From the sequence record OK335775.1: 64,000 bases of DNA. One strand, given 5' to 3'. Source of the stretch: Escherichia phage PSD2002. Both the position numbers and the translations under genes were made by a program. Positions within the stretch are counted from its first letter, which is position 1. Every line of letters starts with the position of its first letter. Shown here in pieces: positions 1-38,404 of this stretch. Under the pieces are notes generated by a model. That model was not told the origin of the DNA and did not search any database. It saw only the letters and a program-made list of their open reading frames with translations.

Positions 1-249
1 CTCGATAGCCGCAATTTTAAATCTATTGTCCTGGTCTTGTCTAATCATTTCAGTATAAGAGGCATAAGTAGTCTCTTTATAAAAGTTTAGAATATACTCG
101 CCTTTATACCAAACCAATGCCATAAAGAACAATAATACCACGACTAGGACCCGGGAAAAAACTACTTTCCCGGAAGAAGTATCTTTAAAAATTCTATCAA
201 GAAGTCCAAAAAGTAGGTCTGATAATGATATTCCTACTTTTGGTTCCAT
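1..249 (-). CDS. t: Holin (gene t), N-terminal part; gene runs off the window start
   Basis: Reverse-strand ATG at 247-249 preceded by AAGGAG and a TATAAATA late promoter; translation MEPKVGISLSDLLFGLLDRIFKD... resembles T4 holin T N-terminus; position downstream of gene 38 as in T4. Confidence 0.75.
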   Translation of the reverse strand, partial: MEPKVGISLSDLLFGLLDRIFKDTSSGKVVFSRVLVVVLLFFMALVWYKGEYILNFYKETTYASYTEMIRQDQDNRFKIAAIE

Positions 250-267
250 ACTTTTCTCCTTTAAAGA

Positions 268-275
268 TATTTATA
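268..275 (-). promoter_or_regulatory. Late promoter for holin gene t
   Basis: Minus-strand TATAAATA followed by AAGGAG RBS and ATG. Confidence 0.65.
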
Positions 276-286
276 GCGCTTATGTA

Positions 287-1081
287 CTATAGCCAGGAAC
301 CGTAGATAACACCTGTATTATGCCAAGTAGGAGAACTTCCAGCAACAGCAGCTCCTGCGCCGCCACCAGCGCCGACTTTTAGAACTTTACCACCATCAGA
401 CCATGCATTCTGACCTGCGCCGCCAGCATCGCCACCCTGACCAGAGTGAGCATTTCCGTATTGATAACCACCTCCTGGACTATCCAAAGAAGCTCCGCCA
501 CCTGAATATCCACCACCACCGCCTGGGCCAAATGGTCTTCCTCCACCACCGCCAATATCTTGCCAGTTTGCACCAGAGTGAGGACGATAAGCGATACCAC
601 CGCCGCCACCGCCACCGCCGCAGATAACCCCACCATTATTAATTCTTAAACGACCGCCAATATCATTTACAATACAAGTTCCACCCAATTGGCCGTTGCC
701 ATCGCCGCCCGAGTGGGTCCATCCACCTTGACCACCTCGGCCCCATATATGAACCCCACCACCAATATTCAATTGAACATATTCGTTTGGAGTATCCCCA
801 TACATAAAGAACAATGGAACATCACGGGTATAAGATACTAATGTATCTGTAAGATTAAACACAATAGGCGCACTACCGGCTTCAAAGCAACGGTCGCGGA
901 ACCATTGCCCATTAAAGTTATGGTCCCCACCTAAAGTATGAATTACTTCAACAGACCGACCGTTCATATTACTCATCCAAAACGGAATACCCATTCTCAA
1001 TCGCTGGGCGGCGCCGCCCATCCAATTTTGTCCTGTATTAGCTACTGCAGACGATCCTACCCACGGTCCTCCAACTGCCAT
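287..1081 (-). CDS. 38: Long tail fibre tip adhesin gp38 (T2-type, glycine-rich motifs)
   Basis: ORF track 287..1093 (TTG at 1093); ATG at 1081 with GGAGGT RBS preferred. Conserved N-terminal region ([25 protein letters not shown]) then poly-Gly motifs separating variable segments, typical of T2/T6 gp38; follows gene 37. Confidence 0.8.
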
Positions 1082-1093
1082 ATAAACCTCCAA

Positions 1094-1107
1094 GGGGCCT
1101 AAGCCCC
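1094..1107 (-). promoter_or_regulatory. Short GC hairpin between genes 37 and 38 overlapping gene 38 RBS region
   Basis: ggggc-ctaa-gcccc palindrome. Confidence 0.35.
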
Positions 1108-1112
1108 TCTTA

Positions 1113-4100
1113 TTATTTTAACAATGATTTAATTAGTGCTTTAAGTTCTTCAATCTCTGATTTCAATTCTGCTATTTCTGCAGTGTGCTCATTGATTGCA
1201 GCTGTATTTAAACCAATTACACCGTTATAGTTTAAACGAAGTAAAGCTTCACCGTCAGGGTCGCCTTCAACCAATTCAGGTAAAATAGCTTGAACTTCTT
1301 GAGCAATTAAACCAGCATTAGGTTCCCATTTCTGATTACCTTCTTCATCCAGGCCACGTTTCTGCATATAAGTGTAACCGTTAATTTTTGAAAGTGTTTG
1401 TGAAGCATTTTCAAATTTAACAAGGTCTTTTTTAACACGAATATCAGAACGAACATAAACATCACGAACAAATGTCGAATAGCTATCGTTTGCCTGAACT
1501 AAATGGCCGTGAGAAATAATTGCTCTGCCAACTTCTGTCCAAAAAGATCCATTTGAATCCCAAAGGCCCGGATGAGATTGATACATTGTACCCCAGCTTG
1601 CAATATGTACACTATTAGCAACCATATTGATTCGGCCGTCACCGCCGTGTGATAATCCTGTGTCGTTATCACCAATAGCAATACTAGGAGAGCCTAATCC
1701 ATTAACAGTACCAACACCAATTGCAGGAGTCTGGACTAAAGACGGGGCGTAAAATAAACCACTAGAGTGGAATTCGAAAATACCTACAGGACCGTTGCCA
1801 TTTTCCTGGTTACCAACACGAATTATAGCTTGTCCCCATGTTTGTGGAGTACGACGCATACCGAAATCAACACCTGATATGTATCCTTCGTTAGTAATAC
1901 CAGATTTTCCTTTGATAATCGGATAATAACTATCATTACCGACGTTGCCAAAATCCACAAATACAGGAGCTTCTAAACCCCATTGGTCACCCCATGCACC
2001 AGATTGATGAGCCACCCATTGTGCAGCCTTTATATAAAGTCGGTCCCTATTAAAATAAAAAGTATCCGACCCCTGAGGAGCTAAACCAACTTCTCCACTA
2101 TTATGAATATTAACGCCTGAATTAGTTTGGAAACTATAAAACGATAAGTTGTTATCAGCGCCGCCATTACCAACATACCAGTTATTAACGCCTGCTTTTT
2201 GTCCTTTCACATAACCAGATTCGGTTGCAGCACTGTTAATAACAATAGCATCCGAGTTTGCATTAAGAGTTAAGCGGCCTGTCATTGTGTCGCCTTCTTT
2301 AGAAACACGGCTATAGACAGCACCAAGAAGATTGGTTACATCACCGGCAGAAGTAAACGTTTTCCAGATATCAGACCAGATGTTACCATTTTTGGCAATA
2401 GTAGCTTCACCACCGCCAACCTGCACGTTATCCGGGAAATTAACTGTACCATCAGCATTAAATCTTGATGTATGACCTTGGGTCCCGTCTTCTTTGTAAT
2501 GATGCAAAACAAAAGTCCCGGAATTAATTTCAGTACCTAAAGACCAAACAGCTTTTCCTTGTAAGAATTTCTGCTTAACAATAGGATAATATTTACTTAC
2601 CGCGTCATCATCAATTTCTTGGAAAACAGGAGCTGCTTGTGCATATTGAATATCATAACCACCCGCACCGGCGCCGTGTCCACCGAATTTAATATAACCG
2701 TTTGCTGCAAAAGAAGCATAACTCAAATCTAAGTCAGGAATAACTACCTTACCATTACTTAAATCTATACTTAAAGGACGAAGTGGCCCTATATCGCCGG
2801 TTTTACCTTCACCAAAGGCGGTAGGAATAATATGTAGGCTTGTTTCTGAACGGCGGAAAATGGCGCCGTAGTCATCATTCCAAATTCTAAGAGCATTGAC
2901 AGCATTACCAGCAATAGTGCCGGAGGCGTTAACTTCTTTACCGACATTTATGCTTTCGTTTACATTCATGCCACCATTTAAATGGGCTTCAACTTTGTCA
3001 TCGGTTTTGCGCTGAATATACCACATCCAACTAGTGGCATCAGATATTTCCATTACGTTTTTGCGGTCACCAGCGACATTAGTAAAGGTATTACCCCAAA
3101 CGCTGATAGTCATATTATCAACTGAACTACTTCCTGTTGTATTTCCTCTGAACATAAGAGTCGAAGCGTTGTTGCGGCCATCAATATTAACCGAACCACC
3201 AACAACATCAATATTACCAGGAGTAACTAACAAACCACCAGCGGTGTTAACGTTTGTAGTACCCTTACCACGGAAATAGTGGTGATAATTGCCACCTTGA
3301 TAATAACCTAAAAGAGTTTGACCGTCACCATACGCGTTATTATCATGATAAGTGACAACCGTCGCCAAAGCATAGTTTTCCGACGGAGGAGTGGTTAAAT
3401 CGGTACCGTTTACAGAATAACCCATAACCATTTTTCTAAGACTGGTGGTTTCTGCAGGGCCGTACAGGAAAGTTCTCGTGCCGTTATTAACGCTGAAATA
3501 ATATCCATCCTGATGCCATTTTAACCCGGTGTCATTATCGCCAAGAGCAATTGAAGCCGTTCCTAATTCAGAATATCCTTTAGAGTCGCCTGGGGTGCCT
3601 ACAGAAATAGAATGACCAGCTTTCAATCCGCCAGACCAGGTAAACGACCAAAGATAAGCTTCTAAGCCATCTCCAGCATACCAGGTTATTCCATCACTAT
3701 CTTTAACTTCATGGAATATACGTGCTCCTACAGCATTTCGCATAACACGGAGGCGGTTAATAGCCGTTTCGCTTTCTGTCATTGGAGTGTTATTTGCTAA
3801 TGAATAGATATCATAATCGCCCGTCTTCTTCCCATTTGTAATAACTTTATCGGTCAAAATCTGAGGAGACGAAATAGATTTCCATGCTGATACTTCAGGT
3901 GAAGTAAATAGGCCACTGCCTGAAAATGCATAAGTGCTTTCGCTTGCAGTAGAATAATCCTGTACGCGAATATTAACTACTTGGTTAGTTGCTCCTGCAT
4001 TATTAGGAGAAAAAATAATACCACGCTCACGGTCATCGCCATCAAAGAAACGAAGATGAGAAGTTGAGGCACTCTTAGAAATAAGTTCACCACCGTGGGT

Positions 4101-4415
4101 CATAATCTGCCCGGCGGCAATAATATCGCGAGTTACTCGAGCAATACCATTGAGATTGAAATCACCAATTTGAGTAAATACACCATTAAGTGTATAATCA
4201 CCGGTTTGATTGTAGTTACCGGTATGAATAACATTGCCGTCAATATTACCACCTTTAGCAAAGCCAAGGTCAATGATGGCACCGGTGTCGTCTTTAGTAA
4301 AAAGTAAACGGTCCTTTAAGTTAATAGCCAGTTCGCCTTCAGCCAACTGGGCTGGTGCCGGACGTACACCAGCTACTTTACTTCTTTTAAATTGGATTTG
4401 CTTTAAAGTAGCCAT
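1113..4415 (-). CDS. 37: Long tail fibre distal subunit gp37 with C-terminal intramolecular-chaperone-like domain
   Basis: 1100 aa; N-terminus [13 protein letters not shown]...[12 protein letters not shown] matches T4 gp37; C-terminal ~110 aa (SDIRVKKDL...[10 protein letters not shown]...[13 protein letters not shown]...coiled coil) resembles peptidase S74 auto-cleaving chaperone domain. Confidence 0.9.
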
Positions 4416-4423
4416 AATGCCTC

Positions 4424-5071
4424 TTAATAATAACCAAAATCTTGAATAGAATCTTTAATAACAATCTGGTCAAAACGAGGAACGTGTCCTGCGTCAGAGG
4501 CCGGATTCAGCGAAATAAAGTTAGGAGCAGCAAGTACTCCGGTCATTGTTTGCATGTTAGTATTATTTATTTGGACTTGTTTTGCGTTATCTACTAATGG
4601 CAATCCGACTTGGGCTTTAGTAGGGGTGTTGCCTGGGCTGAATACGCGGCCAGATTCATCGTATACCTGACGGAATAATGAATCACCCATTACGGTAAGT
4701 CGTTTAGCACCAACTGCTGTATTCGGGTCAAATATTATAAATGGAGTACCGTTTTCCGTTTCATATCCAAAAGCGCCTTTAATACGGAAAGAAGCCGTGA
4801 ACGGTGCTCCACCAGTTCTTGTTCCTAATTTAATACCGTATCCATTAGTATCATTAAAGGTCAGCCCTTTTTCAAAATACACGTTATTCTTATAATTGCC
4901 GCCGTTTGCTTTTGAAACAAAGTCGTTATCAGCGGCTTGTGGTTTATTATATTCGGTATAAACTTTATATGTTTTGTAAAGAAGGTCATTTGATACAGGC
5001 GTTAAGGGAAAATTACCTTGGTGCCATAATACTGAACCTCCTGCTGTAGAACCTAATTTTAAATCTGCCAT
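4424..5071 (-). CDS. 36: Long tail fibre hinge connector gp36
   Basis: 215 aa; MADLKLGSTAGGSVLWHQGNFPL... and C-terminal PRFDQIVIKDSIQDFGYY match T4 gp36. Confidence 0.9.
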   Translation of the reverse strand: MADLKLGSTAGGSVLWHQGNFPLTPVSNDLLYKTYKVYTEYNKPQAADNDFVSKANGGNYKNNVYFEKGLTFNDTNGYGIKLGTRTGGAPFTASFRIKGAFGYETENGTPFIIFDPNTAVGAKRLTVMGDSLFRQVYDESGRVFSPGNTPTKAQVGLPLVDNAKQVQINNTNMQTMTGVLAAPNFISLNPASDAGHVPRFDQIVIKDSIQDFGYY

Positions 5072-5120
5072 TTGAGTTTCCTTTGGGAGTTATAGCCTTT
5101 TATATATTTATGGCCGTAGA

Positions 5121-5146
5121 AAACGAAAAAGGAACCCGAAGGTTCC
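5121..5146 (-). terminator. Rho-independent terminator after gene 35
   Basis: On minus strand GGAACC-UUCG-GGUUCC followed by UUUUUCGUUUU. Confidence 0.65.
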
Positions 5147-6268
5147 TTAATATTTTTCTCTAAATTCAGCGACCCAAACCTGACCAGGTTTAGTGCCTGT
5201 TTTATCATATAGCTGGGCTATGGTAGTACCCATATTTTTAGTTTCCGTACCAAAGTTCATACGAATACCGTTAACACCAAATTCAGCAGGTTTTGGCTGA
5301 GGTTCTGATTCAGATATCTCACCGAACATAACATTTCGAACTCCGCCTTGGCCAGCCGAAGCTGTTTTTCTGGCATAAAGAGTAAAGTCTGTAGTACCTT
5401 CAGGAACCATTACTACCCGTTCAAATGTCATCCATGCACCAGCAGGAACGTTGGAAGGAACGTCCATATTAACTGTCCCAGTTAAAGCACCTGAGGCATT
5501 AAAAAATCTAACAGACATCTGAGAGGTCCCGACGTCTTTTAAAGCTTGGTCATACATTAATTGAAACTTAAGGTAAAAGAATTCACCTGGCTTCATGTTA
5601 TAATCTGTTAATGGGGTGGTAGGAGATTCGGTAGGAAATCGCTTAATTTCATCTCCCTCATTGCTTAGATAAGTGCTTTCGTCTTCAACAATTCTGACAG
5701 GATATCCTGTACCACCGACGTCGCTGATATCATCAAATACCACTTCTAATGGAGTAGAAACATCTTCGACAAGCACCCCATCATTATAAAGCACATGTTC
5801 CATTACTATAGCATTCCTTCCTGAAACATAAAATGCAGAATAAGATGGCTCAAACCGGTCTATTAACCATTTAGTAGGGAATGCGGTACTTCCTGCTGCA
5901 CGGAACCAATCGATAAGTTTTTGTGAAGCATTTAATCTACCAGAAGATACTAAACAAACTATTCTATTGGCCGGTATAGAATTTATATACGTTATAAAAG
6001 CTTCAGAAATAACATCAAAATCTTTTGTAAAACTATAAGTTTTGTTAGCCACTATTTTAGGTTCAGCACTAACATCAATTTCTATAAGGTTTAATCCATT
6101 TTGAAAATTCTGGGAACCGAAGTTCCCATCTTGAAATTTAACATATGCTTTTGTGGTAGACTTAGTACAACTACCCGCTATACTAAGTTTATACCTTACA
6201 GCATTGTTTTCAGATAATGTAGGAACCTGGACATATCCTTGTCCAAATTCTGCCATAAATCTTTCCAT
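5147..6268 (-). CDS. 35: Long tail fibre hinge protein gp35
   Basis: 373 aa; MERFMAEFGQGYVQ...KPAEFGVNGIR... matches T4 gp35 in length and sequence. Confidence 0.9.
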   Translation of the reverse strand: MERFMAEFGQGYVQVPTLSENNAVRYKLSIAGSCTKSTTKAYVKFQDGNFGSQNFQNGLNLIEIDVSAEPKIVANKTYSFTKDFDVISEAFITYINSIPANRIVCLVSSGRLNASQKLIDWFRAAGSTAFPTKWLIDRFEPSYSAFYVSGRNAIVMEHVLYNDGVLVEDVSTPLEVVFDDISDVGGTGYPVRIVEDESTYLSNEGDEIKRFPTESPTTPLTDYNMKPGEFFYLKFQLMYDQALKDVGTSQMSVRFFNASGALTGTVNMDVPSNVPAGAWMTFERVVMVPEGTTDFTLYARKTASAGQGGVRNVMFGEISESEPQPKPAEFGVNGIRMNFGTETKNMGTTIAQLYDKTGTKPGQVWVAEFREKY

Positions 6269-6276
6269 AATACCTC

Positions 6277-9200
6277 TTATTCAATCCACTCAAACTTAAC
6301 GGATTTAGTGACCGGGTCAGGAATAATACGAACGTTACCAATACGTAACCAATCAAGGATTGTAATGTTACCCATTGTAGCGTTATCAGCAGGCAATGCA
6401 CCAACCTCTTCCGCAGAAGGAGGGTTATCTGCCGTATAGACCATAGAGAACGTAGTCCATGCGTTTTTATTTTTCTGCCAGGTACGTGTATAACGAATAG
6501 TACCACCATTCAGTCCTGTAGGATAGCACACCCAATCCTGATAACATGAATCCAATGTATTACCAAACTGAGTTAACGTACCAGGATATTTAACTTCCTT
6601 ATCACGAACAGAATAATCAAACCAAGTACCACGTAATTTCTGACCTGATGTACCGAGAACCTCGTCACCAAAACTACCGTCTTCGTTACGATAACGAATA
6701 GCCGGAGAACTAAATGCACCCGTTTCTGTCAACCAACCAGAAGCATTCCATATCTCATCAGAAACACCGGCAGGTTTAGTTTGGACCGTATCAATATTAA
6801 CCTGACGTTTAGTTTTCATCGTCCAATAACCAGGGAACAGGTTAAATGTAGCCGAATCATTGATATCGACAGACCAGAAGCCAACGGTTTCTGCAGTAGG
6901 GGCCTGCGATGCTAATGTAGGTTTAACACCAACAGAGCGGACGTATTTTTGAGCAACCAAACCATTATTTGCCGATACCTGTCCGGTGGAAACGATAGTA
7001 CCTGAAGTAGTTACGTTTTGCAATGAAGACAGAGCAGAAGCATTTAATGTAGTTGTAGAAACACCGTTAGAAGTGGTTATACCTGTGATATTAGCATTCT
7101 TAGAAATACTAATGGAACCACTATTAACAGCAAAGTCACCAGTCGTATTAAAGGTCCAGTAGAAAGATTCTAAAGAACCCGGCGATGGAAGATAATGTAT
7201 TTTAAAATCACGAGTTCCGTCGTTTACAGTGCCTAAAGAGAATGTACCTTGCCCTAAACGTTGTTTAACAATAGGATGGAACTTGGCATCCGGGGTCGAA
7301 TTTATCTCGGCAAAAATCGGAGCTAAAGTATCACCTTGAGAGTTCCAAGTACCTGCACCAGATTGGGGTCCTACAAATTTAATAGATTTACCTGAGCTAA
7401 CAGATACATCATTTTTAAAAGTAGAATTTCCAGTTACTTCTAGAGAACCTAAAATAGTGTTGCCGGTAATATTAGCCGTACTAGAAGACACTAGAGGAGC
7501 GGCCAGGTTCAATTGTTTTGTCAACGTTAAAGAACCATTAACCGTTTGGTCAACGTCTCTACGAATGAACTGGAGTGAATCTAGGCCATCCAATTTCTCG
7601 GAGTTCACAGCCGTAGCATTTATAGGTAAAAAGTTCTGTAAAGTTTTATTCATCTCGTAAGATGAAACCGCATAACCTGTTTTAGGGTAGTTAGCTGCGT
7701 TCAGAACAGTATCGTCGTTCTCATAAAGGCCTGTACCTGAGTTAAATTTAACACCAGAACCGGTAACTTTATTTCCTGAATAGGTTAAAGCACCTTCGGT
7801 TAATTTAACAAATCCACGACGAAGTGCAGTAGCTTCCCAAGTAGTTTCGGTCTGTACTACATATTTTAAACCAGAAGGGCTTACAGCCAAAACTTTAGAA
7901 GTTCCTGCGGTTGTTTCGGTATTGGTTGCAACACGAATAATACCTTCAGAACTTTCAGTAGATTTTTTAGAGTGTAATTTCAAAGGAGTGATGATGGTTT
8001 TGTCATCAGTACCAACGTTGACTTCGGTCTGGGTCGCCAGGCGAGCAGTACCACGTTGAGTCTCATTTGCTTCTCTAATATCTAGTGTATAATGGTTCCA
8101 TAAGGTTCCTGATTCAACCAAACCACTGGCTGCTGAGACAGAAGTTCTAGCAGTATCATTAAATCTTGTTTTAATTTTCAACGGAGTTGAAATAACATTA
8201 TCTAACGTACCTGCATCAAATTCTACCTGTGTTGCAATTCTAGCAATACCAGTCAATCCTTCCATAGCTTTCCTATCATTTAACGTCTTAGGCGTTACCG
8301 CACGAGTATAATCTGTTCCAGTATCAGTTTCCTGTTGCGTAGCAATTTCAATTAACCCTGTACGAGTATCAAGAGCCACACGAGCATGTAATGTTTCCGG
8401 AGAAACAGCACTGTTGGCAAATCCACTTGCCGATTGGCCTGCGTTAACTTCAGATTGGTTAGAAAGATATACCGTACCCTGTTGAACTTGGGTAGCTTTA
8501 TACTGGTCAAGAGCTTTAGGAGAAATAACCAAATTGCCTACGTTCTTATTATAAACGTTAGTACCTACGGTGTCCCTAGCAGTCGCAGGAGTGGTTCCTA
8601 CAGTAGAGGTATATGTTACAATACCTGAAAGACTTTCCGAACCCTGGCGCGCTTGTAGCTTCTTAGGAGTGATGATTGTAGTATCATCTATACCAGCATC
8701 AGTTTCAACTTGCGTAGCAATTTCAGCAACACCACGACGAGTTTCGGTTGCAGTACGTTCGTTTAATTTCTTAGGAGAAATAATCAAATCGTCCTGGAAT
8801 GCGAAGGTTGTGTCCTGGTTCACCTGAGCAGTAGTAGCAATACGAGCAATACCACGACGAGATTCAGTCGCCACACGATTAGCTAAAGTCTGCGGAGTAA
8901 TTGCCAGTTCTTTTTCAGGATTATTTTCATGGTCAACGTTTGCTTGAGTCTGGGACGCAAGGGCAATAACACCTAAACGAGCACGAGTTAAATCATCTTT
9001 AGAATCCACACGTTCTATAGTAGGAACGTTCTGGGCAACAACCCAATATTTGCCACCTGTAGTGGTGTCTTCGATATAACTCAGTTCAATAACCGGAGTA
9101 TAACTTATATCGCCATTAAAGGTCAGTACATCATTCAATACCCATTCGGTTTCTGGTGGATATTCTGAACGTTTAGGGAATTGAAGCAATTGAACAGAAG

Positions 9201-10326
9201 AAGCAATCTTATCTCCTACAGCAGCCTTAATATTTACCGTCTGAGCTTTACGGAGATAGTTCAGAGCAATCTTAACGACATCACCCTGGGCTACGCCTGT
9301 AGGTAATGTGATATTAATCGTCTGCGGCGTGGTGTTATTAGGACCAAAAACAATAACGCTTTCGTTAGCCAAGAGTTCAACATCATCGCGAATTACACGT
9401 AAGCGAGTTTGAAGGTCGCCGTCCCAAACATACCATAATTTTTCGTTAGAGTTATAAACGAAGAATCCATCGCCTGAGGTACGGAATTCCATGCTATGCT
9501 GATCAGGTTTACCTAATGCAGACGAAGCATCAAACGTTTCAACGATTAAGTGGAACTTACTTCCTAAACCATCGATATCAACGGTTTTAATCATATCACC
9601 TTGGTTCGCATACTTAGGAAGAGTAAACTTAATTACTGCACCTGAAGTATAACGACGGAGAACATTATCACCGGCTTGAGCTTGGAACTGAGCGGTGTTC
9701 GGTTCTACACGAATACCACGTTCTTCGTTACCAGCTTCCCAGAAATGCCAAAGACGGTTAGCAAAGATAAGCATGTTATAAGAAAAAGGCTTCGTAATTA
9801 AGGTCTCAGTAAACTGATTACCAAAACGAACAATTTTCTGGTTACCACCACCAGGAGCAGAACTAGACTGAACCTTTATTTCGTTATAACCAACACGTCC
9901 ACCGATATCTTTAATTACAACGGTATCGCCGTCTGTAGGGTTAGGAGGCAAGGTAAATGTAGTAAAGCTAGCAGCGGAATCCACCGCAATATATTCACCA
10001 GAAGCCAGTTGGCGTGTAGGAGATGCTACGGTAATCCATTTAGGGTCCGTACGGGTAGCGGTCCAATAACCAGGTACAAAGGTTCCTGCCGGAGCATCGA
10101 TATCGCGTTGAGCAACCCAGATACGTTGGTCATGGATTACGGCGAACCCTTTCTTATATCCACGCGTCTCGTCGTACGCCTGGATGGTGTTCTCATCTAT
10201 AAAGAATTCAACGTTGACGCCGTCGTCTAATACATTGTAATCGGCTTTGGCAACATTGATAACTTTCTCGCCTGCAGCATCGAGTCCGGATGTAGCACGG
10301 AAGGCAGGTTTTAAAATATCGGCCAT
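6277..10326 (-). CDS. 34: Long tail fibre proximal subunit gp34
   Basis: 1349 aa; N-terminus and repeated TRRGxA...ATQ motifs as in T4 gp34; preceded by late promoter. Confidence 0.9.
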   Translation of the reverse strand: MADILKPAFRATSGLDAAGEKVINVAKADYNVLDDGVNVEFFIDENTIQAYDETRGYKKGFAVIHDQRIWVAQRDIDAPAGTFVPGYWTATRTDPKWITVASPTRQLASGEYIAVDSAASFTTFTLPPNPTDGDTVVIKDIGGRVGYNEIKVQSSSAPGGGNQKIVRFGNQFTETLITKPFSYNMLIFANRLWHFWEAGNEERGIRVEPNTAQFQAQAGDNVLRRYTSGAVIKFTLPKYANQGDMIKTVDIDGLGSKFHLIVETFDASSALGKPDQHSMEFRTSGDGFFVYNSNEKLWYVWDGDLQTRLRVIRDDVELLANESVIVFGPNNTTPQTINITLPTGVAQGDVVKIALNYLRKAQTVNIKAAVGDKIASSVQLLQFPKRSEYPPETEWVLNDVLTFNGDISYTPVIELSYIEDTTTGGKYWVVAQNVPTIERVDSKDDLTRARLGVIALASQTQANVDHENNPEKELAITPQTLANRVATESRRGIARIATTAQVNQDTTFAFQDDLIISPKKLNERTATETRRGVAEIATQVETDAGIDDTTIITPKKLQARQGSESLSGIVTYTSTVGTTPATARDTVGTNVYNKNVGNLVISPKALDQYKATQVQQGTVYLSNQSEVNAGQSASGFANSAVSPETLHARVALDTRTGLIEIATQQETDTGTDYTRAVTPKTLNDRKAMEGLTGIARIATQVEFDAGTLDNVISTPLKIKTRFNDTARTSVSAASGLVESGTLWNHYTLDIREANETQRGTARLATQTEVNVGTDDKTIITPLKLHSKKSTESSEGIIRVATNTETTAGTSKVLAVSPSGLKYVVQTETTWEATALRRGFVKLTEGALTYSGNKVTGSGVKFNSGTGLYENDDTVLNAANYPKTGYAVSSYEMNKTLQNFLPINATAVNSEKLDGLDSLQFIRRDVDQTVNGSLTLTKQLNLAAPLVSSSTANITGNTILGSLEVTGNSTFKNDVSVSSGKSIKFVGPQSGAGTWNSQGDTLAPIFAEINSTPDAKFHPIVKQRLGQGTFSLGTVNDGTRDFKIHYLPSPGSLESFYWTFNTTGDFAVNSGSISISKNANITGITTSNGVSTTTLNASALSSLQNVTTSGTIVSTGQVSANNGLVAQKYVRSVGVKPTLASQAPTAETVGFWSVDINDSATFNLFPGYWTMKTKRQVNIDTVQTKPAGVSDEIWNASGWLTETGAFSSPAIRYRNEDGSFGDEVLGTSGQKLRGTWFDYSVRDKEVKYPGTLTQFGNTLDSCYQDWVCYPTGLNGGTIRYTRTWQKNKNAWTTFSMVYTADNPPSAEEVGALPADNATMGNITILDWLRIGNVRIIPDPVTKSVKFEWIE

Positions 10327-10359
10327 TTTATTTCCTTTTCGTTTTCAGGGTATAGAACT

Positions 10360-10367
10360 ATTTATAG
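10360..10367 (-). promoter_or_regulatory. T4-type late promoter (TATAAATA) for gene 34
   Basis: Plus strand tatttata = minus strand TATAAATA, about 35 nt upstream of gene 34 ATG. Confidence 0.7.
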
Positions 10368-10373
10368 CAAGAT

Positions 10374-10402
10374 GTTTACTTCCTTAAAACCCGTGATATA
10401 AT
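10374..10402 (+). promoter_or_regulatory. T4-type early promoter for rnh (GTTTAC - 17 nt - TATAAT)
   Basis: gtttac at 10374-10379, 17 nt spacer, tataat at 10397-10402, divergent from the gene 34 late promoter. Confidence 0.65.
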
Positions 10403-10433
10403 GGACCTCTCAACTACTTGAACAGAGGTTCAT

Positions 10434-11381
10434 ATGAACGATTTAGATTTTTTACTTCCTGAAGAAGACCAACAAAAAGATGGATTTTTACTCCTAGATT
10501 TCAGCCAAATCATTATGGCTGCAGCTTTCCAAGAGTTTGGTGAGAATGCTGGATTTCCTAAAGTAACTACAGCAATGCTTCGACACCTCGTGTTGAATTC
10601 AATTAAGAAAAATATTAAAGACTTTAAAAAACAGGGGTACAACCAACTGGTTATTTGTGTTGATAACTCTAAATCAGGTTATTGGCGTCGTCGCTATTCA
10701 CCTTATTATAAGAAAAACCGTGCTAAGGCTCGTGAAGAATCATTATTTGATTGGGAAGGCTTATTTACGGCAATGCATATTATTGTTGATGAGCTTGAAC
10801 ATAACATGCCTTATATTGTTATGAACATCGATACTGTCGAGGCCGATGACCATATTGCTGTTTTAACCCGTATCCTTACGGCTTTAGGCCATCCTGTTAT
10901 GATCGGTTCTTCGGATGGTGACTTTACCCAACTTCATAAATTCCCTGGGGTAAAACAATGGTCTCCAATGCAGAAAAAATTCGTCAAAACAAAATCTGGC
11001 GATTCATTATTGGATTGTGTAACCAAGGTTGTTAAAGGCGACCGTAAAGATAACGTTGCGAGTATTAAAGTTCGTGGTGATTACTGGTTGACAATGGTTG
11101 AAGGCGAACGTACTCCTAGCACTCGTGCCAAGGAACTTGAAGCAATTGCTCTTAATTATTACGACCATGATATAATTAAAACACTTCTTACTGAAGAACA
11201 ATATGAACGTTTCTGTGAAAACCAAATCTTAATTGATATGGACTTTATTCCAGATGATATTGTTGCTTTAATTACTGAAAGATATAATACGTATAACAAA
11301 CCTTCGAAATCTAAAGTTTATCCTTATTTCGTTAAATCTGGTTTGTCTAAACTAACCGCTACAGTAGCTGATTTTTATTAA
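10434..11381 (+). CDS. rnh: RNase H / 5'-3' exonuclease (flap endonuclease)
   Basis: 315 aa; LLDFSQI...SGYWRR...YYKKNRAKAREES..WEG...SSDGDFTQLHK...WSPMQKK... matches T4 RNase H. Confidence 0.9.
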   Translation: MNDLDFLLPEEDQQKDGFLLLDFSQIIMAAAFQEFGENAGFPKVTTAMLRHLVLNSIKKNIKDFKKQGYNQLVICVDNSKSGYWRRRYSPYYKKNRAKAREESLFDWEGLFTAMHIIVDELEHNMPYIVMNIDTVEADDHIAVLTRILTALGHPVMIGSSDGDFTQLHKFPGVKQWSPMQKKFVKTKSGDSLLDCVTKVVKGDRKDNVASIKVRGDYWLTMVEGERTPSTRAKELEAIALNYYDHDIIKTLLTEEQYERFCENQILIDMDFIPDDIVALITERYNTYNKPSKSKVYPYFVKSGLSKLTATVADFY

Positions 11382-11391
11382 GGTGAATATA

Positions 11392-11661
11392 ATGGCTAAA
11401 GAAAAAGTGAAAGTTGAATTCAATCAAGAAGAACATGGTAACACATTGGCACAACTGATTAAGTCGGCTTCTGATACTAAATTAAAAATGGAAGCTTACG
11501 GTGACGAAATTAAAGATATCAAAGACCGTGCTAAGACTGAACTTGGTGTAGACGGTAAAATGTTTAACCAACTGTTTTCCCTGTACCATAAAGGCACTCG
11601 TGAACGTTTCGAAGACGAAAAAACTGAAGTGGTAGAACTGTATGACACAATCTTTGAATGA
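11392..11661 (+). CDS. dsbA: dsDNA-binding protein DsbA (late transcription enhancer)
   Basis: ORF track starts at GTG 11383; ATG at 11392 with AGGTG RBS gives 89 aa, the length of T4 DsbA; position between rnh and 33. Confidence 0.7.
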   Translation: MAKEKVKVEFNQEEHGNTLAQLIKSASDTKLKMEAYGDEIKDIKDRAKTELGVDGKMFNQLFSLYHKGTRERFEDEKTEVVELYDTIFE

Positions 11662-11944
11662 TTTTGATGGAGCGGTTAATACCGCTTCCGAACCTGTCCA
11701 TGTATTGGTAAATAAACAACAGAATGGTCTCGATATTGAGGCCTTTGTTGAGGCTGAAGGTTGTAGCTACCTCGAAGCGGCTACCGCATGGTTGGAAGAG
11801 AACAGCATCCCTGAAGGTAACTTTGCTCGTTATTTGCCTGCAGGAATTATTGATAAAATTATGAACGAAGCCATTGATGATAACTTGCTTCGACCTTCAA
11901 TGGCTCGAACGCAAAAAACTAATACTCTGGATTTCTTGTTATGA
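11642..11944 (+). CDS. 33: Late transcription co-activator gp33
   Basis: 100 aa acidic protein between dsbA and 59, as in T4. Confidence 0.65.
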   Translation: MTQSLNDFDGAVNTASEPVHVLVNKQQNGLDIEAFVEAEGCSYLEAATAWLEENSIPEGNFARYLPAGIIDKIMNEAIDDNLLRPSMARTQKTNTLDFLL

Positions 11945-12594
11945 TTAAGATTCGCATGCCACCAAACAATAACCGTATGGTGAATGGTAAGAGCGTATAT
12001 TCACTATACTTAATGCTCAAACATCACTTCAATGCCAAATACGACGTTATAAAATATAACTGGGTCATGCGAATCTCTGATACGGCTTATCAAAAACGTC
12101 GTGACAAATATTTCTTTGAGAAATTGAGTGATAAATACACTTTGAAAGAGCTTGCTCTTATCTTCATGAGTAACTTGGTGGCTAACCAAGACGCATGGAT
12201 TGGCGACATCAGTGATGCTGACGCCTTAGTCTTTTACCGAGAATATATCGGTAGACTTAAAAGAATAAAACAAGTTTTTGAGGATGATATCAAAAACATC
12301 TATTATTTCAGTAAGAAAGTGGAAGTTAAAGCGCTTTCTGAAATTTTTGATTATAATAAAAAAGTTAACTCGAGCTATATTTTTAAGCTCCTTCAATCGA
12401 ATGTTATTTCATTCGAAACGTTTATTTTGCTTGATTCATTTATGGATATAATTGATAAACATGATGAACAGACCAACGATTTAGTGTGGTCTAAGTATTC
12501 GACTAAATTAAATGCTTACAAAAAAATTCTTATAGTAGATTCTATTGAGGCTCGTAAATTGTTCATTGAAACAATTAAGGGTTGTAAATTTTGA
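11941..12594 (+). CDS. 59: Helicase loader gp59
   Basis: 217 aa; ...DVIKYNWVMRISD..YQKRRDKYFF...LVANQDAWIGDISDADALVFYREYIGRLK... matches T4 gp59. Confidence 0.9.
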   Translation: MIKIRMPPNNNRMVNGKSVYSLYLMLKHHFNAKYDVIKYNWVMRISDTAYQKRRDKYFFEKLSDKYTLKELALIFMSNLVANQDAWIGDISDADALVFYREYIGRLKRIKQVFEDDIKNIYYFSKKVEVKALSEIFDYNKKVNSSYIFKLLQSNVISFETFILLDSFMDIIDKHDEQTNDLVWSKYSTKLNAYKKILIVDSIEARKLFIETIKGCKF

Positions 12595-34415: not shown

Positions 34416-36311
34416 ATGTCCGAACAATTGAATGAGGTATTTGATGGTGATATAAATTTATCTGCTGTCAATTTAAACCCTAAACTTAAAGTCCCACAGA
34501 TTTGGAATATAAAGGCTGAAGGTAACGAGAACCTTGTTGCCCGCATGGTTTCATATACTTCCGAAGGCGATGTAATTCGTCAGGTTAAGCCTGGTGACAA
34601 GTATGTTCATGTCGTTTTAATGAGCCTATCGGCTAAAGGTTCTCCTGCCGAACTCAAAGGTGGATTAGGTACCAATCCTATTTCCGCTATTCGTTCTATA
34701 TTTGATATCGTCTATGAACAGGTCAAGGCCCTTCGTATGGACGCTGTTATGTTCCGTTTTCCTACCAAGAAAATGAAAGGGCAGGAAAAAGCTATACAGA
34801 GGGTATTGGCTAAATTAATAGCCTCTAGAGCAGGCGGACAGTTTAAAGTTCTTGATGCCTTGTATCAATTCACCGGTAAGCATTCGTATGTTTTTATCTA
34901 TCGTAAAAATAAAAATATAGAATCTATAAATGGTATTCCTAATATTAATTTAGAATTGTATACTAAAGTCGAATCTGAAGTCGGTGACGTGTATGTTTCA
35001 AAGAAAACAGGCGAAGATGTTACCAAACTAGAAGCTATAGCTAAGTCCATAGACGAAATAGAAAAATCACGTTCTGATAAAACTGTTATAACCAAAACAA
35101 AGGTTTCTAAACGTGCTGCTATCAATGCTTTATATCCTACAGCAGAGCCTACAGGATTGAGTAAATTTTCGGCAGAGCACAAAAAAGCTTATGCAGATTA
35201 TTCTGCTACTAGTTCCGTTCATTCTTCTGAAGATTCTAAAGAAAGCCAAATAGCTTTAGCCAGTAATAAAATATTAAAAGACACCTCTAAAGAAATGGCA
35301 GAATATTTGGATTATATTTTTAACGGTGTTAATCCATCATTTGAAGTAGACGAGCGCAAACTTAAACTAATTGCTGATATAAAGTTTGCTTTAGAGGCAT
35401 CAGATTCTTTAGATAAATCTAATAGTGTCATAGAGGCTTTAAAATCAGGTAAATCTCATGTAGACATTCTTAGACTAGTCGCTGCGGCCCTTTTAGATGA
35501 TTCAGTTAAAGGTACTTGGGCTAGAGAATCTAAAATCAAGGAAGTAATAAAATCCTTAGTAGCAGTTTATACAAAATCTATCCAACCGTTGTTTAAGATA
35601 TCTGATAATCCTAATTTATCCAAACCTCAAGAAGAGGCAGTCAAAAAGTATACTCGTGGCGGCTACAACCATATAAACAACTTTTTGCTAGGTAAAACAG
35701 ATACCACCGATGAAATGATAAAAATGATTGGTGAGTTGGATTCTACATTTGAAAATGGTACAAAACTTCCTAAAGGAACCATAGTGTATCGTTCTCAGAT
35801 AATGCCTACCGAAATGGCTTTGAATTCTATAAAACATAAGGTGATGTATCTTCCTATTTTTGCATCAACTTCATTGGCTCCTAATATTTTCGGTGAAATG
35901 GGTCATGCTCAATCCAACTTAGACCCTGAAGCTCTTTCTAGCGATATAGATAGTAATCTTGAAGACACCATTAAAAGTGCGACCGGAAGTGCTAGAGATA
36001 CCATTAAGCTAGGGTTAATTATTAAAGGTGCTGATAAAATTAAGGTTATTGTGCCCGGTGACTTGGCTAATTGGTCTACAGAAACCGAAGTAATTCTTCC
36101 TCGTGGGGTTATGCTTAAGATTAATAAAGTATACGGTGCTTCCAAGGGACCTATGGGTTCAATTGGTAAATATGTTTTAGTGGAATGTGAAGTTGTAGCT
36201 ACCGAGCAAATCACAGAGGAAGATTCATATAGCACCGGATTCTCGTTTGGAAATTATGATAGAATTATGTATGAAGATTCTATGGAAAAATTAGCAAATT
36301 TATTTAAATAG
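34416..36311 (+). CDS. Alt-like ADP-ribosyltransferase paralogue 1 (putative injected head protein)
   Basis: 631 aa; conserved N-terminal about 230 aa shared with two downstream ORFs; LNE/VF N-terminus resembles prohead protease cleavage/capsid-targeting site; C-terminal R-S-E ART signature (VYRSQ, FASTSL, TETEVILPRG). Confidence 0.7.
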   Translation: MSEQLNEVFDGDINLSAVNLNPKLKVPQIWNIKAEGNENLVARMVSYTSEGDVIRQVKPGDKYVHVVLMSLSAKGSPAELKGGLGTNPISAIRSIFDIVYEQVKALRMDAVMFRFPTKKMKGQEKAIQRVLAKLIASRAGGQFKVLDALYQFTGKHSYVFIYRKNKNIESINGIPNINLELYTKVESEVGDVYVSKKTGEDVTKLEAIAKSIDEIEKSRSDKTVITKTKVSKRAAINALYPTAEPTGLSKFSAEHKKAYADYSATSSVHSSEDSKESQIALASNKILKDTSKEMAEYLDYIFNGVNPSFEVDERKLKLIADIKFALEASDSLDKSNSVIEALKSGKSHVDILRLVAAALLDDSVKGTWARESKIKEVIKSLVAVYTKSIQPLFKISDNPNLSKPQEEAVKKYTRGGYNHINNFLLGKTDTTDEMIKMIGELDSTFENGTKLPKGTIVYRSQIMPTEMALNSIKHKVMYLPIFASTSLAPNIFGEMGHAQSNLDPEALSSDIDSNLEDTIKSATGSARDTIKLGLIIKGADKIKVIVPGDLANWSTETEVILPRGVMLKINKVYGASKGPMGSIGKYVLVECEVVATEQITEEDSYSTGFSFGNYDRIMYEDSMEKLANLFK

Positions 36312-36319
36312 GATAGATT

Positions 36320-38401
36320 ATGACCCAATTAAATGAAGTGTTCGAGTCCGAAGGTACACTGCCTGTTGTGAACTTGAACCCAAAACTTAAAGTACCTCAG
36401 ATTTGGAAGATTGGAGACGCGGAGTCTCAGTTAGTAGCACGTATGGTATCCTACGCTTCTGAAGGTGATGCTATTAAACAAGTTAAAATGGGTGATAAAT
36501 ATGCCCACGTTATCCTTATGAGCCTTTCAGCTAAAGGTTCGCCTGCCGAACTTAAAGGCGGCTTAGGCCCTACTCCTGTAGATGCGATTAATACTATTTT
36601 TGATGTGGTTTATGACCAAGTTAAAAAGCTTCGTATGGATGCCGTGATGTTCCGTTTCCCTACTAAGAAAATGAAAGGTCAAGGCCCTATCGTTCAACGG
36701 ATTATCCAACGTTTGGTAGCACAGAAAACCGGTGGACGTTTTAAAGTGGTTCCGGCTATGTACCAATTTACCGGTAAACATACTTACATCCTGGTAGTTC
36801 GTAAACAAGCTGATATAGAAGATATCAAAGGTATGCCTGGAATTAATGCTGAATTGTATACTAAGGTAGATTCTGATGTCGGTGAAGTTTATATTTCTAA
36901 AAAAGAAGGCGTACAGGTTACTAAAGAAACTGCTATCGCCGGTAGTATTGCTAAGGTTGAAGAACGTCGCACTGATAAAATGGTTATAACCAAGACTAAG
37001 ATTTCTCGACGTGCTATTGCAGCAAGTCAATCGTTAGAATCTTATCGTAATGAAAGTGGGCTGTTTAAGAAATATGAAGCTACTGCAGTAGATTTTAATA
37101 AACCGGCAACAGTTCCATTAATCCCTGAGGCCCAGGAAATGGTCACTAATAACAATTCTCCTGCGGCTAAAAATAAGGTTGCTAATATAGTAGCTGAAGG
37201 CACTGCTGAAGAATTGCATTACGACTATAAATTGTTCCCACTTCACGGTATTGGTGAAATCCAAGAGAAAATTAAAGAGAAAATTCTTACAGCTATCAAA
37301 AATGAACCTTTGACATCTGTTAAAGCCCTGGAAAAATATGCCTCTACCATTAATACCATTTTCGAAGAATATAAAGGCGAGTGGCTGGCTATCCATAACA
37401 GAACTCGTAAAGGCCAACCTGACGACGTCTGGAATGAATTAACCGAGTCCAAGTGGAAAGCAGCCAAGACTAAGTTCATTAAAAAACGTGTGTATAGTTT
37501 TGCTGGCGTAGGTGGTGGTATTATGGTCGATATTACTATTGCTCGTGAGGGCTCTAAATATACCCCATCACAAAAGCGCGGCATCAGAGAATATTGTGGT
37601 TCAGGATATACAGACATAAATAATCTTCTTTTAGGACGTTATAATCCCCAGAACTATGAGGTTATGAGCGAAAAAGATATCGAATCTGCAGTTAATAATT
37701 TGGATTCCGCTTTTGAAAATGGCGACCGTATACCAGAAGGCATCACAGTTTATCGTGCACAGAGTATGACTGCTCCTATATACGAAGCACTAGTTAAAAA
37801 TAAAGTGTTCTATTTCAGAAATTTTGTATCTACTTCTTTAACTCCTATAATTTTCGGACGTTTTGGTGTTACACACGCTGGTATTGGTCTTTTAGAACCG
37901 GAAGTTCGCAACGAATTGACAGTTGATAAAAATGAAGAAGGAATAACTATTAATCCTAATGAAATAAGAGCGTATAAGGAAAATCCCGATTACGTTAAGG
38001 TTCAAATAGGATGGGCCATTGATGGGGCTCATAAAGTTAATGTCGTATATCCAGGAAATCTCGGAATAGCAACTGAAGCCGAAGTTATTCTACCGCGTGG
38101 ATTAATGGTCAAAGTTAATAAAATAACAGATGCTTCTAATAATGATGGAACAACATCTAGTAATACAAAACTCATCCAAGCTGAAGTTATGACAACAGAT
38201 GAGCTTCAAGAATCTGTTGTATATGATGGTGATGTACTAATGGAAACCGGCGAGTTGGTCGTATATCAAGATGACTTCGATACTTCCGAAAGCCCCTTAT
38301 CTTTTGATTCATTTGTTAAATCTACACGGTTTGATGTACTGCCTCTTTTGGCTTCATGCATAGACCTCTATGACATCCCAGAAAAATTCATCCAAGGGTA
38401 A
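36320..38401 (+). CDS. Alt-like ADP-ribosyltransferase paralogue 2
   Basis: 693 aa; same N-terminal module; ART signature VYRAQ, FVSTSL, TEAEVILPRG. Confidence 0.7.
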   Translation: MTQLNEVFESEGTLPVVNLNPKLKVPQIWKIGDAESQLVARMVSYASEGDAIKQVKMGDKYAHVILMSLSAKGSPAELKGGLGPTPVDAINTIFDVVYDQVKKLRMDAVMFRFPTKKMKGQGPIVQRIIQRLVAQKTGGRFKVVPAMYQFTGKHTYILVVRKQADIEDIKGMPGINAELYTKVDSDVGEVYISKKEGVQVTKETAIAGSIAKVEERRTDKMVITKTKISRRAIAASQSLESYRNESGLFKKYEATAVDFNKPATVPLIPEAQEMVTNNNSPAAKNKVANIVAEGTAEELHYDYKLFPLHGIGEIQEKIKEKILTAIKNEPLTSVKALEKYASTINTIFEEYKGEWLAIHNRTRKGQPDDVWNELTESKWKAAKTKFIKKRVYSFAGVGGGIMVDITIAREGSKYTPSQKRGIREYCGSGYTDINNLLLGRYNPQNYEVMSEKDIESAVNNLDSAFENGDRIPEGITVYRAQSMTAPIYEALVKNKVFYFRNFVSTSLTPIIFGRFGVTHAGIGLLEPEVRNELTVDKNEEGITINPNEIRAYKENPDYVKVQIGWAIDGAHKVNVVYPGNLGIATEAEVILPRGLMVKVNKITDASNNDGTTSSNTKLIQAEVMTTDELQESVVYDGDVLMETGELVVYQDDFDTSESPLSFDSFVKSTRFDVLPLLASCIDLYDIPEKFIQG

Positions 38402-38404
38402 ATA

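Follow-up and report, generated by a model that had tools for sequence, protein, structure and literature searches.

Does the distal end of the long tail fibre of Escherichia phage PSD2002 mature by self-cleavage of gp37, and is the protein encoded next to it, gp38, the adhesin that binds the end thus exposed? We addressed this question for the adjacent genes g37 and g38 in a stretch of 64,000 nucleotides of the phage sequence (OK335775.1), referred to here as the window. It is very probable that the two genes together encode a T2/S16-type long tail fibre tip, with a self-cleaving gp37 and a gp38 adhesin that carries loops of the RB32/FL08 type. This is an ordinary and well-understood arrangement, and its biology is textbook material that is already known.

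Both genes lie on the minus strand, within the interval 287-4415 that an earlier note on this DNA had correctly given (Table 1), with g38 directly downstream of g37 across a spacer of 31 nt. The spacer contains a hairpin that was found at the equivalent position in all nine relatives inspected (9/9), with stems that differ between them. The g37 product matched PHROG 1699 ("long tail fiber protein distal subunit") over aa 1-1099 with E=0. The two proteins are identical to UCR81182.1 (gp37) and UCR81181.1 (gp38), both from phage PSD2002 and both labelled "hypothetical protein" in GenBank. For g38, a TTG at 1093 given as the start by a mechanical ORF list was dropped and the ATG at 1081 preferred, because this codon is preceded by GGAGG and yields a product beginning with the family start MAVxGPW. 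No NCBIfam family was matched by gp37 or gp38, an Rfam scan at the gathering threshold and a tRNA scan returned nothing across the whole window, and a sigma-70 promoter scan of positions 1-5200 found 15 candidates against 13.6 expected from shuffles, which is no enrichment.

Table 1. Features of the g37-g38 locus, in positions of the window.
Feature	Position	Strand	Basis and remarks
g37, long tail fibre distal subunit precursor	1113..4415	minus	1100 aa, 118.4 kDa; ORF and PHROG 1699
Predicted mature gp37, aa 1-989	1449..4415	minus	106.1 kDa, ends ...FVRDVYVR; inferred, S16 site transferred by alignment
gp37 tip, aa 906-989, predicted gp38 docking base	1449..1700	minus	Homologous to the part resolved in the S16 gp37 crystal (phmmer, 6f45_A residues 22-92)
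Codons of Arg989 and Ser990, predicted scissile bond	1446..1451	minus	Ser990 is the predicted catalytic nucleophile; conservation and S16/T5 sites
Intramolecular chaperone domain, gp37 aa 990-1100	1116..1448	minus	Pfam Peptidase_S74, AlphaFold, Foldseek; predicted release after trimer folding
C-terminal long helix of chaperone domain, gp37 aa 1063-1099	1119..1229	minus	DSSP helix 175-211 of modelled fragment
g37-g38 spacer: GC-rich hairpin GAGGGGC-UUAG-GCCCCUU, then g38 GGAGG ribosome-binding site	1087..1108	minus	Hairpin scan and fold
g38, tail-fibre adhesin	287..1081	minus	264 aa; Pfam GP38 and Gp38_N
gp38 N-terminal attachment domain, aa 1-39, Trp7/Trp20/Trp35	965..1081	minus	Pfam Gp38_N
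gp38 polyglycine specificity region, aa 113-248	338..745	minus	Segment map and per-segment identities
Glycine-rich motifs (GRM)	GRM1 722-745, GRM2 596-619, GRM3 509-553, GRM4 410-442, GRM5 338-373	minus	
Hypervariable segments (HVS)	HVS1 686-721, HVS2 554-595, HVS3 443-508, HVS4 374-409	minus	

At the extreme C-terminus of gp37, the long tail fibre distal subunit, we identified an intramolecular chaperone domain of 111 aa and 12.3 kDa, extending from Ser990 to Lys1100. The peptide SDIRVKKDL...[10 protein letters not shown]...[13 protein letters not shown] starts at Ser990, with 111 residues from there to the stop. The HMM search proposed in the earlier note bore out its suggestion of an S74-like, self-cleaving type of chaperone at this end of the protein: Peptidase_S74 ("chaperone of endosialidase", PF13884) matched aa 990-1049 at E 9.1e-12, covering model positions 1-57 of 58 and scoring 45.5 bits where the curated cut-off is 22, well outside what chance would give. 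With gp37 aa 889-1100 as query, a large protein search yielded only 17 proteins, a set sufficient for a conservation test and shallow for AlphaFold. Ser990, Asp991 and Lys995 are invariant in this 17-sequence alignment, which reaches down to 27% identity. Ser990 and Lys995 of SDIRVK form a Ser/Lys pair five residues apart at the start of the domain, the motif SD.R.K recurs in 9/9 reference gp37 proteins, and the Peptidase_S74 domain begins at the same SD motif in gp37 of T2, T6, S16 and ABTNLS3. Identity over the chaperone domain is 100% to E33 and PSD9 and 55% to S16; over aa 906-1100, gp37 aligned with S16 gp37 (6f45_A) at E 3.6e-46 (phmmer), and its C-terminus aligned with that of T2 at E 6e-17 (BLASTP).

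The predicted structure of this region was confident over the chaperone part (AlphaFold pLDDT 78-95; the model is a monomer, whereas the native fold is an intertwined trimer). Over the tip (aa 889-988), pLDDT fell to 32-52, since the alignment of 17 proteins was shallow, and this unreliable part was left uninterpreted. The modelled fragment shows the alpha/beta unit, beta-hairpin and terminal coiled-coil helix typical of such domains, with strands at 126-134 and 140-147 and the helix at 175-211. The best Foldseek match in the PDB was the intramolecular chaperone of MyRF (MyRF ICA, 7dc3; E 2.9e-6, TM 0.68 on the target, 23% identity), which was also a weak sequence match (E 0.035); the K1F endosialidase intramolecular chaperone (3gw6) was matched with a probability of 0.99, at about 10% identity in the structural alignment. 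A coiled coil had been proposed to follow the S74-like motif: the helical part of this proposal stands, as a single C-terminal helix of 37 residues in the AlphaFold model, but it belongs to the chaperone domain and is no separate feature. The identification of the gp37 C-terminus as a Peptidase_S74 intramolecular chaperone is supported by the profile, the conserved Ser/Lys pair and the predicted fold.

By homology with S16 and T5, we predict a cut between Arg989 and Ser990 (DVYVR989^S990DIRVKK). The earlier note had placed the cleavage after the Ser; we place it in front, because the S16 and T5 cuts leave the conserved Ser on the chaperone. PMC7917993 describes, for S16 gp37, autocleavage of the C-terminal 113 residues (DLNVS^SDRRIKK) that exposes the gp38 docking surface, and states that gp38 docking needs this newly exposed gp37 end. 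In T5 pb1, the cut falls at Thr1263-Ser1264, and Lys1269 activates Ser1264 (PMC4690869). The deposited gp37 chains of 6F45 comprise 204 residues, with 68-72 modelled; these match residues 22-92, up to the cut, which fits a loss of everything beyond the cleavage site. For T2 and T6, C-terminal processing of gp37 followed by capping with gp38 is attributed to Drexler et al. (1986) by PMC3157838. Since the same domain is present in T2, T6 and S16 and processing is reported for all three, the agreement with T2-type processing noted earlier holds.

The folding sensor of T5 and K1F is an Arg of the neighbouring subunit (with an Asp), which in T5 precedes the Ser by 14 residues (PMC4690869). In gp37, position -14 is Asn976 and not an Arg, and mapping by position revealed no convincing counterpart of the sensor Arg/Asp. 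Arg984 and Asp985, at -6 and -5 from Ser990, are conserved; they are common to S16 and absent from T2 and T6.

For gp38, we found matches to Pfam GP38 (PF05268; E 1.2e-62, 212 bits) and Gp38_N (PF21721; E 2e-20, 72.9 bits), both with a cut-off of 25 bits, and to PHROG 2056 (E 4e-101). Over its full length, the protein matched the PP01 gp38 receptor-binding domain (PDB 9v85, E 6e-70) and S16 gp38 (6f45_D, E 1e-53). Trp7, Trp20 and Trp35 align with tryptophans of S16 gp38; such residues act as prongs entering pockets of gp37 (PMC6851490, summarising Dunne et al. 2018). Glycine makes up 28% of gp38 and 38% of aa 105-264, with runs of G8, G5 and G5. Relative to S16, T2, T6 and PP01, the GRMs are 45-100% identical and the HVS 0-45%, identity being higher in every GRM than in any HVS, so that the poly-Gly motifs do flank variable segments as had been read from the sequence. 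In the alignment with T2 and T6 called for in the earlier note, the HVS are about 20% identical and the GRMs more alike, and the receptor role proposed there for the variable segments agrees with published evidence that these loops determine the receptor (PMC3157838, PMC12032242). Across nine phages, the subtype of the gp37 chaperone co-varies with that of the gp38 N-terminus, and co-variation of gp37 chaperone/tip and gp38 N-terminal subtypes has been described by Trojet et al.

Two other accounts of these proteins have to be weighed. The Peptidase_S74-like domain might be a degenerate remnant that aids folding or trimerisation and stays uncleaved, in which case virions would contain full-length gp37 and gp38 would sit elsewhere or be transient. 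The failure to map the T5/K1F sensor Arg would suit such a remnant, as would the C-terminal fin of the P22 tailspike, proposed as an uncleaved auto-chaperone in the T5 paper (PMC4690869). We nonetheless regard this as very unlikely, given that both catalytic residues are invariant within a near-complete Pfam match, that the domain is unchanged in E33 and PSD9 and shares 55% identity with the S16 domain, which does cleave, and that gp38 docking in S16 depends on the exposed end (PMC7917993). It is extremely improbable that gp38 is an assembly chaperone of the T4 type and not a virion adhesin, with gp37 itself binding the receptor. The homologues in E33, wV7 and HY03 are indeed labelled "distal long tail fiber assembly catalyst" in GenBank, but these labels are a carry-over from T4 gene numbering, and T4 gp38, which has a folding and assembly role, is described as very unlike S16 gp38 in sequence (PMC6851490). 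We rejected the T4-type identity on the adhesin profiles, GP38 being the "phage tail fibre adhesin" family, and on the matches to two crystal structures, S16 gp38 bound to its gp37 tip and the receptor-binding domain of PP01 gp38. A gp37 that undergoes cleavage and afterwards receives an adhesin as its cap is the account that we retain.

For the receptor, we predict OmpA, because the gp38 loops are of the RB32/FL08 type. Overall HVS identity is 88% to RB32 and FL08, 82-92% across the group of RB32, FL08, wV7 and E33, and around 20% to T2, T6, S16 and PP01. RB32 requires OmpA and responds to the composition of LPS as well, and chimeras with RB32 loops acquire RB32 specificity (PMC3157838); FL08 is OmpA-dependent, and Gp38 proteins that are close relatives reportedly have their receptor in common (PMC12032242). 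The receptor is the weakest step of our reading, because PSD2002 was isolated on STEC O157:H7 EDL933, a serotype on which PP01 uses OmpC, and because HVS3 carries substitutions (ASLDSP) that are absent from OmpA-tested relatives, which have ASYDGP or ASYVAP. The same tip architecture might thus serve a receptor other than OmpA, either OmpC as in PP01, or OmpA together with an LPS or O157 determinant; the LPS sensitivity of RB32 and the lower identity of HVS3 to RB32 and FL08 (82%) lean the same way, and the PP01 receptor-binding domain is the best-scoring PDB match. That score, however, stems from the beta-helix and the GRMs. Over the HVS, identity to PP01 is 22%, with 0-17% in HVS1, 2 and 4, segments in which identity to RB32 and FL08 is 86-100%. 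A PP01-like OmpC binder was dropped for this reason, the likeness being one of scaffold rather than of loops, and we consider a non-OmpA or composite receptor unlikely on the whole. OmpA remains the predicted receptor.

Among known systems, S16 is matched in the order of g37, g38 and the holin gene, in the alignable gp37 tip and chaperone (111 aa here, 112 aa in S16), in the cleavage motif SD.R.KK, and in a gp38 alignable end to end, in which the G8 motif and all three Trp are conserved. It differs in the length of gp37 (749 aa vs 1100 aa in PSD2002), in lacking the 11-12-residue insertion of the PSD2002 tip (the [12 protein letters not shown] region), in the residue before the cut (Ser, vs the predicted Arg), and in gp38 hypervariable loops that are 22% identical, for which a different receptor is therefore expected. 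T2 and T6 share the GRM/HVS design and the C-terminal Peptidase_S74 domain of gp37 (T2, E 2.7e-16; T6, E 1e-10), but their chaperones are about 30% identical to that of PSD2002, with 99 aa in T2 and 113 aa in T6, and their loop sets, with OmpF/FadL as receptors for T2 and Tsx for T6, are different. RB32, FL08 and wV7 share the HVS at 88% identity and GRM1-3 at 100% identity; in RB32, however, the attachment domain and gp37 tip that bear this loop set are of the T6 type (31% chaperone identity), and the C-terminus of PSD2002 gp38 is of the E33/PSD9 type, with GSWL vs GPRV in this group.

More distantly, the K1F endosialidase (3GW6) and T5 pb1 share PF13884, the Ser-x4-Lys pair and the beta-hairpin with terminal helix, and the i/i+5 spacing of Ser1264 and Lys1269 in pb1 is that of Ser990 and Lys995. 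In T5, the receptor is bound by the C-terminal domain of the cleaved fibre itself, whereas the cut in PSD2002 would expose a docking site for a separate adhesin. K1F resembles T5 in this respect, the receptor-binding domain being the C-terminal domain of the cleaved protein itself. The MyRF ICA (7DC3) is a eukaryotic homologue from a membrane-bound transcription factor, with which only the self-cleaving trimerisation module is common.

Taken together, these likenesses suggest the following course of assembly. gp37 would be made as a precursor of 1100 aa, in which the chaperone (Ser990-Lys1100) trimerises and templates the folding of the preceding beta-helical tip. After correct folding of the trimer, Ser990 and Lys995 would together cleave the Arg989-Ser990 bond in each chain, freeing the 12.3-kDa chaperone and leaving a mature gp37 of 106 kDa. 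The new end would expose a hydrophobic base on which, by analogy with S16, one gp38 may dock on three gp37 chains (a 3:1 stoichiometry) through its N-terminal helical domain and Trp7, Trp20 and Trp35. The C-terminal part of gp38 would form a lattice of polyglycine-II helices from the GRMs, displaying the hypervariable loops to an outer-membrane protein, which for a loop set of the RB32/FL08 type is probably OmpA. Of this picture, the identity of the domains, the conservation of the catalytic residues, the predicted fold, the gp38 architecture and the loop family are shown here; the cleavage and its precise site, the 3:1 stoichiometry and the receptor are carried over from homologues.

Finally, the gp37 tip at about aa 851-950 shows 57-67% nucleotide identity to five aligned relatives, and 43% to ABTNLS3 over aa 901-950. 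It is the sole stretch poorly matched in every relative examined, although the chaperone that follows it is 100% identical in E33 and PSD9. Combined with the unique HVS3 substitutions, the divergent tip could conceivably represent a new lock-and-key subtype, or provide an accessory binding activity, for example towards LPS or the O157 surface, that aids growth on O157:H7, the chaperone-coding segment being mainly a recombination linker. We think this quite improbable; if true, the conserved chaperone-coding segment would serve the exchange of tip and adhesin cassettes.

The analysis brings no new insight into how such fibres are assembled or how the host is recognised. Its gain is in annotation, as two "hypothetical" proteins can be named as a distal subunit precursor with a predicted self-cleaving chaperone and as a gp38 adhesin. 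PSD2002 is a component of a therapeutic cocktail against O157:H7, and the prediction of OmpA as its receptor may be of use in designing cocktails and in foreseeing resistance.

The C-terminus of gp37, the distal subunit of the long tail fibre, is a Peptidase_S74 intramolecular chaperone. The peptide singled out in the earlier note begins at Ser990 and runs 111 residues to the end of the protein, and the S74-like chaperone proposed there was borne out by a profile search, in which Pfam Peptidase_S74 ("chaperone of endosialidase") matched residues 990-1049 (E 9.1e-12; 45.5 bits, cut-off 22 bits). Ser990, Asp991, Lys995 and a G..G.IAQ.V...LP core were invariant down to 27% identity, within a shallow set of 17 homologues. 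NCBIfam matched neither gp37 nor gp38 to a family. An AlphaFold2 model of residues 889-1100 was confident only in the chaperone part (pLDDT 78-95), the tip that precedes it being unreliable, and contained a beta-hairpin together with a terminal helix of 37 residues (1063-1099). Its best PDB match was the MyRF ICA domain (7dc3; E 2.9e-6, TM 0.68), and it also matched 3gw6, the intramolecular chaperone of the K1F endosialidase (probability 0.99), and 6f45, the gp37 tip of Salmonella phage S16. The coiled coil of the earlier note is thus this terminal helix, within the chaperone itself. The equivalent helix of T5 pb1 makes a central triple coiled coil (PMC4690869).

Residues 906-1100 matched the S16 gp37 fragment of the gp37-gp38 tip structure 6F45 (E 3.6e-46). 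The S16 protein is reported to cleave off its own last 113 residues, at DLNVS^SDRRIKK, once it has trimerised, exposing the gp38 docking surface (PMC7917993); in agreement with this, only 68-72 of the 204 residues deposited for the 6F45 gp37 chains are modelled, corresponding to residues 22-92, up to the cut. The same SD motif opens the Peptidase_S74 matches of T2, T6, S16 and of ABTNLS3, a backbone relative. The gp37 C-terminus matched that of T2 (E 6e-17), for the gp37 processing of which PMC3157838 cites work of 1986. T5 pb1 is cut between Thr1263 and Ser1264, with Lys1269 activating Ser1264, which departs with the chaperone (PMC4690869). Transferring this position, we predict a cut in gp37 at DVYVR989^S990DIRVKK, which would leave mature gp37 at 106.1 kDa and release a fragment of 12.3 kDa. 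Cleavage after the serine, as first suggested, is probably one residue off, because the T5 serine leaves with the chaperone; phi29 was modelled with the serine retained, according to the T5 paper (PMC4690869). No counterpart of the neighbouring-subunit arginine sensor of the T5/K1F mechanism could be mapped on gp37 by position.

Two Pfam families matched the adhesin gp38: GP38 (E 1.2e-62) and Gp38_N (E 2e-20). Among crystal structures, it matched the receptor-binding domain of PP01 gp38 (9v85; E 6e-70) and S16 gp38 over its full length (6f45_D; E 1e-53). Three of its tryptophans, Trp7, Trp20 and Trp35, line up with those that in S16 insert into hydrophobic, symmetry-related pockets in the base of gp37 (PMC6851490). 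Under the scheme of Trojet et al., we divided the protein into five glycine-rich motifs (GRM) and four hypervariable segments (HVS) and computed identities segment by segment against ten relatives. With S16, T2, T6 and PP01, identities were 45-100% in the GRM and 0-45% per HVS (20-22% pooled), bearing out the suggestion that poly-Gly motifs flank variable segments; with RB32, FL08, wV7, E33, PSD9 and ABTNLS3, the corresponding values were 73-100%, 68-100% and 82-92%. RB32 requires OmpA, LPS composition also mattering, and chimeras with its HVS block take on its specificity (PMC3157838); FL08 is OmpA-dependent, "type 1" (PMC12032242). Since the HVS set matches those of RB32 and FL08, the predicted receptor of PSD2002 gp38 is OmpA, with confidence kept moderate by private substitutions in HVS3 (ASLDSP) and by isolation on O157:H7. 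A PP01-like specificity was rejected: PP01 leads the PDB matches through the common scaffold only, its HVS falling in the low pooled range.

As expected, the locus is mosaic. Nucleotide identity to ABTNLS3, the nearest backbone relative, changes by zone (see table), and its gp38 nevertheless has the HVS set seen here, carried on a T6-type attachment domain. Relative to the closest backbone genome, OR756449, a different subtype takes the place of the joint alone (1317-1744: gp37 tip, first part of the chaperone, gp38 N-terminal domain), the set of gp38 receptor-binding loops being the same. Across nine phages, the gp37 chaperone/tip subtype co-varies with that of the gp38 N-terminus, which is the lock-and-key pairing known from Trojet et al. 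(PMC3157838). The chaperone is 100% identical to those of E33 and PSD9, the preceding 100 residues only 66-68%; in every comparison, conservation of g37 is lowest at residues ~851-950.

Features of the tail fibre locus and zones of identity to ABTNLS3
Feature	Coordinates	Strand	Remarks
g34	6277-10326	-	
g35	5147-6268	-	
g36	4424-5071	-	
g37	1113-4415	-	1100 aa
g38	287-1081	-	264 aa
Late promoter TATAAATA (T4 late-promoter consensus)	10359-10366	-	just upstream of g34
Late promoter TATAAATA (T4 late-promoter consensus)	268-275	-	after g38, just upstream of next gene
Hairpin GAGGGGC-UUAG-GCCCCUU, GC-rich	1087-1108	-	fills 31-nt g37-g38 spacer
Hairpin AAGGAACC-UUCG-GGUUCCUU, then T-rich run	5129-5148	-	between g35 and g36
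Zone: most of g37, g36 through g34, genes beyond	1744-12000		93%
Zone: gp37 residues ~891-1033	1317-1744		unalignable
Zone: remaining chaperone, g38, start of gene t	1-1317		80%

By the ORF list, the first 10.3 kb encodes the T-even long tail fibre proteins, all on the minus strand, followed by a gene, starting within the window, that is holin gene t in syntenic relatives. Because the TATAAATA consensus was found nowhere from g34 to g38, these genes are suggested to form a single late transcription unit. A sigma-70 promoter scan of 1-5200 gave no enrichment over shuffles, and Rfam and tRNA scans of the whole window found nothing. A mechanically listed g38 start at TTG 1093 was rejected; the true start, ATG 1081, lies 5 nt past GGAGG and yields the family N-terminus MAVxGPW, fitting the Gp38_N alignment, which begins at residue 1. 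The g37-g38 hairpin adjoins this ribosome-binding site and recurs at the same position in T2, T6, RB32, S16, E33, PSD9, FL08, wV7 and ABTNLS3, with stems of differing sequence and a UUCG tetraloop in six of the nine, versus UUAG here. Stable C(UUCG)G hairpins were reportedly noted in T4 intercistronic regions by Tuerk et al. in 1988. The g35-g36 hairpin looks terminator-like in a simple scan.

Residues 568-679 (2379-2714) and 796-839 (1899-2030) of gp37 resemble gp34 residues 975-1080 (7087-7404; BLASTP E 9e-12 and 3e-4), with the motif "...APVF..YYPI[VI]K..."; apart from these segments, Pfam Gp34_trimer matches gp37 residues 447-550. The resemblances are fibre modules common to the proximal and distal half-fibres. 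In the hinge connector gp35, residues 57-130 (5879-6100) match Pfam ILEI ("interleukin-like EMT inducer"), barely exceeding the cut-off (E 2.4e-6; 28.4 bits versus 27). Elsewhere, three large tandem plus-strand ORFs at 34416-40528 (631, 693 and 707 aa) correspond to three Alt-like ADP-ribosyltransferase genes of the nearest relatives, versus two annotated in JS98 and JS10.

By exact look-up, gp37 and gp38 are UCR81182.1 and UCR81181.1 of PSD2002, both labelled "hypothetical protein". This phage, a WG01-like myovirus, was isolated on STEC O157:H7 EDL933 and belongs to a therapeutic cocktail (PMC9241756); its backbone is that of Dhakavirus (JS98-like), the nearest record being 97% identical across 20 kb. 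In close relatives, GenBank names for the genes at 287-4415 are inconsistent or misleading ("distal long tail fiber assembly catalyst", "tail protein and peptidase", "hypothetical protein"). The observation in the earlier note is confirmed and its interpretation supported, with the scissile bond slightly corrected; everything fits a well-characterised system. The practical gain is that two "hypothetical proteins" of a phage used in therapy can be annotated properly, and that OmpA can be put forward as a testable receptor prediction.
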